A DNA stretch of 64,000 nucleotides from Octopus vulgaris (taxonomy: Eukaryota): positions 167,896,001 through 167,960,000 of the forward strand of contig OX597814.1 of the NCBI GenBank assembly GCA_951406725.2. The letters are read 5' to 3'. A model generated the notes under the pieces. It made no database searches. It saw only the letters and a list, made by a program, of their open reading frames with translations, and was not told the DNA's origin. Below, in pieces: positions 13,301-16,606 of the stretch (within the stretch, counting starts at the first letter, position 1; each line of letters opens with the position of its first letter). The position numbers and the translations under genes were made by a program.

Positions 13301-13641
13301 ACACACACACATATATATATATTTATATACATGTACATATATGTATATATACATGTATATATATATACATGTATATATACACACACACACATATATATAT
13401 AATAATAATATTAGGGAATAAATTATCATTCCAACCTTACAGGTAAAATTCAGTATAATAATATTAGACCGAATTTCATAATATATAATATATGTATATA
13501 ACTAATTTTATATAACTAAATTAGTTTTATACATGTATGTATGTATATATATATATATAGCAAGAAGAAAATGGAGGGAATCCAGAGGTAGTATTCATCA
13601 GTTGTTAGATATTATAATATATTTATTTATTAAGTGCAGTT

Positions 13642-13763
13642 TCTTACAGCTGTTTCAGCCAAGAGGTCATAGTACCCCATATGTTATTTTCATCTTTTCA
13701 GTATATTATAAATCTGTAGATAAAATTAGGGTACTTAGGCATGCCTCTAGGCTTCGTCAGAGA
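13642..13763 (-). ncRNA. Minimal type I hammerhead ribozyme motif (Penelope-like element associated)
   Basis: Minus strand: TCT CTGACGA AGCC-TAGAGG-CAT..AGTACCC..GGGTACT-ATG-ACCTCTT-GGCT GAAAC AGCT GTA AGA. Intact CUGANGA/GAAA core, long stem II, palindromic stem III, GUA triplet, 3-bp stem I, AATAAA just downstream. Confidence 0.72.
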
Positions 13764-13885
13764 GTTTTTATAAGATAGTCCAAGAAGTTCATAGGGTTAA
13801 TATATGGATATATAAATATACATGGTTCGTCAGAGAGTTTTTTTTATATAAGATAGTCCAAGAAGTTCATAGAGCTAATTTATGC

Positions 13886-13927
<42 letters not shown>

Positions 13928-13942
13928 CATATATTTACATAT

Positions 13943-14553
13943 AGATACCACCACGCTGAAAATAGCAGTCAAAACCTAACTCTAAAGCCACATTAAATGT
14001 TCATATAGCACTAGGAGAGAAGACAAAGCGACAAAATAAACTAGCAAAAAAATTACTGGATAATTTCAGATTCTGGATTTCTGGCTTTGCATAAGAGATG
14101 CTCTGCCTTCTTCAGTGGAATATACTCAGATGGCACATAAATACAAATATATGTATATACAACATACGATATACTTACATATATGAACGTCTGTATACAC
14201 ATATATATGCACGTGTGTACACAACCAGTTTAAATTGCCCGCCCTAAAGCTCCTCGTGCGATATGGTCAGAATAAACACCGCAGTGAATATAATGATGAA
14301 ATAAATATATAAATTTATATAAATAAGGATAAGATCGATATTTAAATATTGATCTAAATAAGTGGCCAGCATGGGAATAAAAACCTTTCAAAGGTAATAA
14401 TTATTTAAAATTATAATTTAGGGTATCTGAGAGATACCACCACGCTGAAAATAGCAGTCAAAACCTGACTCTAAAGCCACATTAAATGTTCATATAGCAC
14501 TAGGCGAGAAGACAAAGAGACAAAATAAACTAGCCAAAAAATTACTGGATAAT
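13943..14553 (-). mobile_element. Retrozyme-like element: 489-bp unit plus 122-bp terminal redundancy
   Basis: 13943-14064 is repeated at 14432-14553 with 4 mismatches. A hammerhead-like motif sits at the repeat boundary. No ORF. Confidence 0.6.
14063..14121 (-). ncRNA. Hammerhead ribozyme-like motif (variant)
   Basis: Minus strand: ATTCCA CTGAAGA A GGC AGA GCAT CTCTT ATGC AAA GCC A GAAA TCCAGA ATC TGAAAT. Stem I is 5/6 paired, AUC triplet; stem II closure and stem III are non-canonical. Confidence 0.55.
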
Positions 14554-14979
14554 ATATAGGTGCAGGTGTGGATGTGTGCTAAGAAGCTTGCTTCCCAACC
14601 ACCCCGTTCTGGGTTCAGTCCTACTGAATGGCACCTTGGGCAAGTGTCTTCTACTATAGCCTGGGGCTGACCAAAGCCATATCAGTGGATTTGGTTGACG
14701 GAAACTGAAAGAAGTCTGTCCTATTTATATATATATACATATATTCATGTGTGTGTATTTGTGTCTGTGTTTGTTCCCCCACCACCACCATCGCTGAGAA
14801 ACCGATTTTGGTATTTTTACATCCCTGTAACTTGGCAGTTTAGCAGAAGATATTAATAGAATAAGAACCAAGCTTACAAAGAATAAGTCCAGAGGTCAAT
14901 TTCTTCAACTATAAGGCAGTTCTCCAGCATGGCCACACTCAAATGACTGAAACAAGTAACAGAGTATATAAACAGTGTG

Positions 14980-15033
<54 letters not shown>

Positions 15034-15036
<3 letters not shown>

Positions 15037-16606
15037 GGGTTGGACAAAATAATGGAAACACCTTAAAATTTCTAACAAATTTATTTTAATATGGGGTAGG
15101 ACTGTCTTTGGCATTGAATTCTATGAGCTATGGACTCATACAAAGTTTGAATTGTTTCCAAAGAAATTTTTGTCCATTCTTCAGCGTAAACAGTCTCCAG
15201 TTCTTTTACTGATGATGGTGGGGGATAACAACTCCTTACTTGTTTTTCTAAAATGCTGCATAAATGTTCAGTAATATTGAGATCTGGAGATTGTGGTGGC
15301 CAGATAAGATGTTCAACTCACTTGAATGTTCCTTGTGCCATTCAGTAACAACTTTAGCTGTGTGAATTGATGCATTATCTTCCTGAAAGATTGCATTTCC
15401 CTCTGGAAATAATGCTGCAACCATAGAATGAATTTGATCAGATAAAATGCTTAAATAGCTATTAATTCTGCCTTGAAGAGGAAGAATTGGACCAGCGGAT
15501 TTCCAAGATATAGCCCCCCCAGATCATCAGAGATCCTCCTCCATGTTTAACAGTTGGAAGAAGGCAGTCCAGGTCAAATGCTTCTTTTGGCTGTCTCCAC
15601 ACATATACTCTGCCAGTGGTTGGAAATAAGGTAAAAGATGATTTGTCTGAGAAAATAACATTCTTCCACTGCTTTAGGGACCAATTCTGTATGTTTTTAC
15701 TCCACATAAATTTTTAGTTAAATATATTCAATGAGAATATTATATACTGAATTTATATTGAGTGCTCTATTGTATTAAAGTATTAATACTATTAAAGTAT
15801 TTATGTATTTAATACAGGCAATTATATATATTTTATATGATATATTATTATTAATATCAGGAAATCAATATTAAAAAATTCTTCAGAAAGATATATATGT
15901 GTGTAAAATAATTGTTTTATTAAATATATATATATATATAAATATATGTAAATATGTATAAGTATAAATTTATAATAATGACATTTTAAAAGTTTCGAAT
16001 TAAGTTTTTAAAGCATTTTACGATCGTTTTGCTTTTTACTCCACTCTAAACGCATTGCAGCGTTTGTTTTTGAAAGTAGTGGTTTTCCGATTACAGCCCA
16101 CCTGTGAAATCCAGCTTTGTGCAGCTCCCGGTGAACAGTTTTTGTGGAAACTGGGTTCTTGAGGTGGTCATTAAGCTCTGCAGTAATAATTCCAGGAGCT
16201 GTATTTTTGTGATCCTTTCTAACAATTTACATAAGAGTCTGACGGTCCCTATCTGAAAGTTTTGGTTTTATTCAAGAGTTTTGTTTCGATGAGGAGGTTT
16301 TTTTCCCTTTCTCAAAGGCTGTCATTACTTTTGAGACAGTACTTCTTGATACACCAGACATTTCAGCTGTTTTCATTACACTAGCGCCTGCCATACGAGC
16401 ACCAATAATTTGGCCTCTTTGAAAGTTCAATAGATCTGTCATTTTAATGAGTTTTAATTACCTTTTTCTGATGATATCTGAAAAGAAACAGCAATTTTAG
16501 CAAAACGTATTAAACAACACTAATAATAAATCAAAAAACATAAAAGTTTAACAAGCCTATGACAGTTTTATAGATATTTCAAAATTATGATGCTATGATG
16601 CTAGGT
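15034..16606 (-). mobile_element. Tc1-family transposon with disrupted transposase
   Basis: TIR CAGGGGTTGGACAAAATAATGGAAACACC after (TA)n. Transposase starts at 16442 (MTDLLNFQRGQIIGARMAGASV) and includes WKNVIFSDKSSF..PTVKHGGGSLMIWG and WPPQSPDLNI. Frameshifted and interrupted; the other TIR is truncated. Confidence 0.9.

Follow-up and report, generated by a model that had tools for sequence, protein, structure and literature searches.

The sequence at 13943-14553 of the window (the whole 64,000-nucleotide stretch of Octopus vulgaris DNA analysed here) is probably a degenerate member of a 489-nt family that is scattered through the genome, lacks an ORF and has a conserved hammerhead-type fold; this family would be a non-autonomous Penelope-like element (PLE), or non-LTR retrozyme, that is copied in trans by the RT/GIY-YIG enzyme of PLEs. 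The size of the family, its fixed 3′ ends, the (TA)n targets, the inversions, the tandem register and the covarying stems were observed directly. An earlier note on this DNA had proposed a retrozyme-like family mobilised by PLE enzymes. The proposal agrees with the multi-copy, non-coding nature of the repeat, the family hammerhead, the tandem-register unit and the PLE-type insertion anatomy; the length of 1.25 units that came with it has to be given up.

Structure of the Window Copy

The unit is numbered u1-u489 from 14553 on the minus strand, so that u equals 14554 minus the window coordinate and the predicted cut falls at u485/486. The following features are referred to below, in window coordinates.

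13943-14553, minus strand: probable PLE-type element of 489 nt without an ORF, one 611-nt copy made of unit u1-489 followed by u1-122 (sequence comparison)
14432-14553, minus strand: u1-122, first copy; its 5′ edge is at u1, 4 nt beyond the predicted cut position
13943-14064, minus strand: u1-122, second copy; terminates within hairpin 1, at the junction with the other repeat family and before the usual family ends
14063-14121, minus strand: type I hammerhead variant with core 14115-14109, extra A at 14108 and 14082, GAAA at 14081-14078 and predicted cut at 14069/14068
14422-14438, minus strand: hairpin 1 (u116-132), ~20 nt upstream of the family 3′-end site u~150 (window ~14404) (sequence, end counts, consensus)
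14328-14359, minus strand: hairpin 2 (u195-226), immediately upstream of the family 3′-end site u~235-253 (window ~14319-14301) (end counts, consensus)
13551-13942, minus strand: adjacent copy of an unrelated second repeat family with a canonical hammerhead, core 13760-13754, GAAA 13656-13653, predicted cut 13645/13644
14554-14720, plus strand: 5′ flank of the element, a short TA stretch and then a very abundant repeat; end approximate (sequence, depth, TA-rich loose ends at 14552)

A 122-nt repeat with a period of 489 and 4 mismatches had been described, and this was confirmed, as 13943-14064 and 14432-14553 differ at 13978, 14016, 14029 and 14046; the flanks of both copies diverge immediately on either side. 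It also holds that the 5′ edge, 14553, lies 4 nt downstream of the point equivalent to the predicted cut, and because this edge is u1, the 4 nt after the cut (u486-489) are missing. As had been stated, there is no credible ORF; the longest stop-to-stop frames within the element measure 40-58 aa and the family consensus has no ORF either, so that a coding remnant is ruled out. The 611 nt had further been taken as a unit copied about 1.25 times. This figure is not the length of the original insertion, because the copy abuts another element at its 3′ edge (u122), and the 3′ ends of the family are at u~150 or u~250.

At 13943, the TA-rich sequence of the junction belongs to the copy of the second repeat family at 13551-13942. 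From 13942 downward the sequence aligns to the TA-rich interior of that family and not to its end. The second-family alignments extend to 13941-13948 in four of 11 loci, and a similar GTAT-rich motif is found before that point in seven of the 11. The position of the edge inside the second family, together with this TA-rich and GTAT-rich context, indicates that the junction is a microhomology deletion or a template switch.

Hammerhead Motif in the Window Copy and in the Family

The hammerhead fold predicted by the earlier note on the minus strand at 14121-14063 was recovered with the same predicted cut, C17 being 14069 and the following base 14068. Read in order, it consists of stem I (ATTCCA), the core CTGAAGA, an A, stem II (GGC..GCC with an inner GCAT/ATGC hairpin), an A, GAAA, TCCAGAATC, the cut and TGAAAT. 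Relative to the family, the window copy has G>A changes at 14072 in stem III and at 14066 in stem I, each of which disrupts a C-G pair. Rfam gave no match within the window at the gathering threshold, and a strict hammerhead core scan of the window did not return the motif at 14121-14063, because the base of stem II is A.A and because of the G>A changes at 14072 and 14066. The window copy has this single ribozyme only, and it is damaged; such a copy would therefore not release a monomer.

The family consensus retains the CUGANGA/GAAA core with covarying stems, and CTGANGA was present in 73 of 94 full copies. The stem cells were paired in 94.4% over 92 rows, which exceeds all 500 shuffles and all slid controls, and the stems are 94-98% paired with changes on both sides. 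Across two subfamilies, the both-sided changes were C-G in 14 and A-U in 14 for stem I, A-U in 3 for stem II, and A-U in 14 and U-A in 13 for the inner hairpin; this covariation represents few events between subfamilies, and subfamily 2 was chosen on the 3′ side of the stem I pair and counted after leaving out five of its 20 loci that lacked a full ribozyme. In subfamily 2 (L241-L260), stem I changed from C-G to A-U, the inner hairpin from A-U to U-A, and stem II from G-C to A-U in 3 rows.

The extra A before GAAA is near-invariant (103 of 104 scored rows) and disrupts the pair that normally adjoins the core. In 39 copies it produces an A.A mismatch at the base of stem II, and 29 of 94 copies lack the 5′ extra A and have a single unpaired A before GAAA. 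Hammerhead searches in PMC3088659 discarded candidates with core-adjacent mispairs, and the available portion of the PLE ribozyme literature (PMC4209133) holds no description of an extra A before GAAA. It is reported in the same source that PLE ribozymes acting as dimers have a short, nearly self-complementary helix III, and an extra base after A9 is known; helix III of the octopus family is 3 bp long and nearly self-complementary. The axolotl ribozyme HHR_Amex2, which cleaves, carries a U.U mismatch at the same place of stem II (PMC7229834), and U.U was also seen at the stem II base in an ORF-linked PLE family of the same genome (5 of 20 loci). Among predicted Xenopus retrozymes, eight of nine did not cleave in vitro (bioRxiv 10.64898/2026.07.22.740005).

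Copy Number, Dispersal and Arrays

The genome assembly that was searched has 227 contigs and a size of 2.8 Gb. A first look with the 611-nt query produced 3750 candidates, 40 of which were scored. Apart from the window copy, the 29 best loci showed 80-91% identity to the window unit and covered 0.86-1.66 units in head-to-tail register. A 23-mer at u125-147 had 828 exact matches genome-wide and the ribozyme 3′ half had 815, and the reversed-pattern controls had 0; the family is thus multi-copy and dispersed, and neither a chance resemblance nor a single-copy unit accounts for it. A local tandem duplication or an assembly artefact is ruled out by the identical register at many loci. The GC content of the unit is low (0.31-0.33).

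Of the 166 motif-anchored loci, 17 extend beyond u262, and every one of these keeps the tandem register; the longest arm in the sampled loci has 810 nt, corresponding to ~1.7 units. Two cut sites in one arm occur at 10 loci of the pooled set and at only 2 of the 166 anchored loci. No array of two full units was found among the sampled loci, which are a part of the family, and the first 100 ribozyme-motif matches included just two same-strand pairs about one unit apart; the rarity of arrays refers to these sampled loci and first 100 listed matches.

A splice-donor-like GTAAGT was noticed at u~375-382 (window ~14175), upstream of the ribozyme, and pyrimidine-rich acceptor-like stretches at u10-110 (window 14445-14545), downstream of it; no spliced joint was seen. 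The pLTRs of PLEs often contain an intron there.

Copy Ends and Insertion Anatomy

The ends were analysed at 88 loci taken in genome order from the first 100 matches of the 23-mer, which avoids ranking bias. The duplicates L032 and L035 were dropped, as were arms of ≤110 nt that start in the low-complexity region u325-400. These loci provided 154 arms, 56 of which end at u140-159 and 62 at u240-259. The copies are 5′-truncated, and their 3′ ends are fixed at two sites, ~150 and 250 nt past the cut, followed by (TA)n; each of these sites is preceded by a hairpin. At the junction, (TA)3+ was found in 111 of 134 canonical 3′ ends, counted without a background control, and since the element's own ends are TA-rich, a part of the (TA)n target signal is microhomology.

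Head-to-head inverted arms were present in 54 of the 88 loci. Of 55 head-to-head pairs, 41 have one arm ending at ~150 and the other at ~250, and a single pair has two ~250 ends. The two arms share a start point, to within 12 nt, in 17 pairs; the 150-arm reaches further upstream in 17 and the 250-arm in 7, and five pairs are non-overlapping with a twin-priming geometry. It is reported from PLE biochemistry that initiation takes place internally at two sites that define the tail, and that both strands are cleaved and extended at AT-rich DNA (PMC11167929); an inverted-pLTR layout of PLEs has also been described (PMC3846280, PMC8557442). We infer that the enzyme nicks (TA)n DNA and that reverse transcription starts inside the RNA at u~150 or u~250, and that often both nicked strands would prime on one RNA, which would produce head-to-head arms of which one has a long end and the other a short one. 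The cDNA would usually stop early, and in a minority of cases it would pass the ribozyme site into the previous unit, for which an uncut tandem RNA, a religated circle or an end-to-end jump would be required.

The idea that the copy ends coincide with the cleavage site was borne out in part: there is a modest, ~twofold excess of 5′ ends in the 24 nt after the cut, but no clustering of 5′ ends at the cut itself. Among 40 loci of the first sample that reach u20, 15 have their end within u486-u20, against 0 of 25 in the 24 nt upstream (Fisher p=2e-4), in a bin that was picked after viewing the data. In the replication, from which 12 overlapping loci had been removed, 78 further loci anchored on u20-45 gave 20/78 against 8/58 with the same bins (p=0.13; per base ~0.014 vs 0.006), and pooling both samples gave p=8e-4. 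L016 and L086 begin exactly at u486, and most copies that reach the cut site continue past it. The modest step is compatible with a share of the templates beginning at the cut and equally with stalling at the fold; a similar excess could come from stalling at the 3′ edge of the fold or at the U run u13-19. The strongest 5′-truncation/inversion hotspot is u45-68 (window 14486-14509; 26 of 72 loci at risk), which is at least as strong as the step at the cut site and has no ribozyme explanation. Short palindromes near u45-68 could allow fold-back.

It seems unlikely to us that the hammerhead is a non-cleaving structural relic or a protein-binding fold and that the match of the 5′ edge is a chance truncation. 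Such a relic would accommodate the non-canonical extra A, the negative Rfam result and the replication value of the end step, but not the pooled value, nor the retention across subfamilies of the core, the self-complementary stem III and three covarying helices. In published PLE experiments, mutating the ribozyme left insertion in vitro unaffected, and in Anolis none of the reads terminated at the cut (PMC11167929), which speaks for a relic, whereas the mismatch at the same place in the cleaving axolotl ribozyme (PMC7229834) and in the ORF-linked PLE family of the same genome speaks against it.

Nature of the Template

Where parts of a single insertion overlap, they resemble each other more closely than they do the median other locus in 26 of 27 direct and 55 of 59 inverted cases. 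The within-copy divergence is not below that to the nearest other locus (0.078 vs 0.064; lower in 10 of 27), and so a single-unit template is not established.

There is a real possibility, which we rate somewhat below an even chance, that the template is a covalently closed 489-nt circular RNA formed by double self-cleavage and ligation, the tandem-register copies being made by rolling reverse transcription. Circles have been demonstrated for coral, mussel and axolotl retrozymes (PMC7229834), all arms exceeding one unit remain in register, and the 10 loci with two cut sites in one arm agree with rolling. When folded as a circle, the unit has more structure than its shuffled versions (z -4.2 for the window and -6.5 for L012, 25 shuffles), in part through TA-rich hairpins. 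However, a closed circle has no 5′ end and therefore does not explain the stops at the cut; the longest arm of 810 nt, the lack of an array of two full units among the sampled loci, the only two same-strand pairs in the first 100 ribozyme-motif matches, and the finding of no private shared variants beyond the subfamily level are likewise against it. Among the runs listed as containing the family, none was recorded as RNA. In assembled contigs of runs presumed to be RNA, the coverage profile of the family resembles that of the genomic data, and such contigs cannot show ends, strand or circles. A circle is also compatible with the preferred reading, a non-autonomous PLE copied in trans, as the step that regenerates the tandem.

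Under that preferred reading, the window copy would be the cDNA of a longer-than-unit RNA in which the upstream ribozyme was cut and the downstream ribozyme was uncut. The cDNA would have run through one cut site and ended 4 nt before the next, and it may have been joined at u122 to the neighbouring element later, or by template switch. A linear monomer cannot yield more than one unit without a jump, and a longer-than-unit RNA cut only upstream yields exactly the window copy. That synthesis stopped at the cut after more than one unit suggests a template whose 5′ end was free, either a cleaved linear multimer or end-to-end jumping, and not a closed circle; a cleaved linear template fits this stop better than a circle does. 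Source loci with two cut sites do exist (the 10 loci mentioned above) and are rare in the anchored samples (2/166). A fraction of the templates likely begins at the predicted ribozyme cut.

A tentative reading of this fossil record, about which we remain doubtful, is that the non-canonical hammerhead with its unpaired A before GAAA, which standard descriptors miss, cuts in vivo, and that the PLE RT copies RNAs beginning at the cut, primes twice beside the two hairpins, and sometimes crosses the cut on religated or uncut RNA, thereby rebuilding the tandem. If true, the PLE ribozyme would be tied to the transposition cycle, a link that was not seen in an in vitro study.

Autonomous Partner

Intact 781-aa RT+GIY-YIG frames exist in the genome. 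The GIY-YIG family search listed 150 matches, and in the 50 loci examined no similarity to the unit was found. A tblastn comparison of PLE proteins with 211 family sequences gave scattered matches, none of them joined in sense at a common point, and the family has no RT and GIY-YIG ORF between pLTRs, the mark of an autonomous PLE. The PLE fragments beside family copies in L015, L182, L158 and L206 were considered as a partner and were judged to be separate or one-off events.

It could be argued that the unit is the pLTR (promoter, ribozyme and tail) of an autonomous PLE whose long copies were unsampled, and that the short copies are ordinary 5′-truncated stumps. We regard this as improbable. 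The inverted 5′ arm, the optional tail and the ribozyme upstream of the 3′ end are those of the ends of autonomous PLEs (PMC3846280, PMC8557442, PMC4209133), but every arm past u262 (17/166 loci) continues into the unit itself, the arms starting at u213-287 have unrelated DNA upstream, and the tblastn matches lack a common junction.

In L015 (2086-2864) and L182 (618-1416), two of the 211 sequences, a family copy and an L124-type PLE end stand tail to tail in the same TA tract, which would be either a shared target or a paired insertion. L127 and L132 (G000 C16), with many of the GIY-YIG matches, belong to a young autonomous PLE with the 781-aa RT+GIY-YIG frame and many near-identical copies; its 3′ region has a hammerhead-like motif with a UUGAUAA core, read by eye. 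An ORF-linked PLE family (L124, L275, L277, L278, L282, L287) has a hammerhead in which one U on either side is unpaired at the stem II base; its core is often CCGAAGA.

Comparison with Known Systems

Judged from its sequence, the 489-nt family resembles a non-LTR retrozyme in the way it works and most probably is one, a non-autonomous derivative of a PLE. According to PMC7229834 and bioRxiv 10.64898/2026.07.22.740005, metazoan non-LTR retrozymes are likewise ORF-less and low in GC, with a type I hammerhead once per unit, a tandem register, a structured unit and coexisting autonomous PLEs, and the 489-nt unit is inside the surveyed range of 51-972 bp (bioRxiv 10.64898/2026.07.22.740005). In contrast to them, the octopus family is almost never arrayed (<1.7 units) and consists mostly of sub-unit stumps with 5′ inversions, it has the extra A before GAAA, and its 489 nt exceed the 170-400 nt of the circles demonstrated there, the octopus family being known from DNA only. 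With the pLTR and tail of endonuclease-bearing PLEs (Neptune and Poseidon; PMC11167929, PMC3846280 and PMC4209133), it shares a pair of fixed internal 3′ ends, targets rich in AT, head-to-head inversion in which just one arm carries the tail, and a hammerhead whose helix III is self-complementary and which has an additional base following A9. It differs from them in lacking an ORF and in having a tail of ~100 nt rather than 30-40 nt, and the autonomous PLEs sampled in the octopus genome have no sequence match to the unit. HHR_Amex2 of the axolotl (PMC7229834) is similar in its mismatch at the stem II base and its short helix III, and it is expected to work better as a dimer; the octopus family has A.A rather than U.U, and 29/94 copies have the single unpaired A before GAAA.

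Our literature search found no paper on retrozymes of octopus or other cephalopods; supplements, which were outside the search, may list them. The element is not a surprise, because retrozymes and their link to PLEs are already in print. Its value is that hundreds to thousands of copies of one short unit make it possible to compare copy ends with the ribozyme cut and the two priming sites, a comparison that bears on the role of PLE hammerheads and on the circularity of the template. If active, the core variant would broaden the hammerhead descriptors.

Neighbouring Repeats

The second repeat family, which adjoins the window copy at 13943, gave 828 candidates in the genome search, and no PLE ORF matches were found in 11 of its loci. 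Its hammerhead has a long stem II and a palindromic CAGCUG helix III, and the window copy of this family (13551-13942) carries a ~70-nt deletion and a 78-nt local duplication. On the other side, the abundant repeat within the 14554-14720 flank is one that we take to be SINE-like. Further along, the minus-strand translations of 15034-16460 contain decayed transposase fragments, presumably of the Tc1/mariner-like type.
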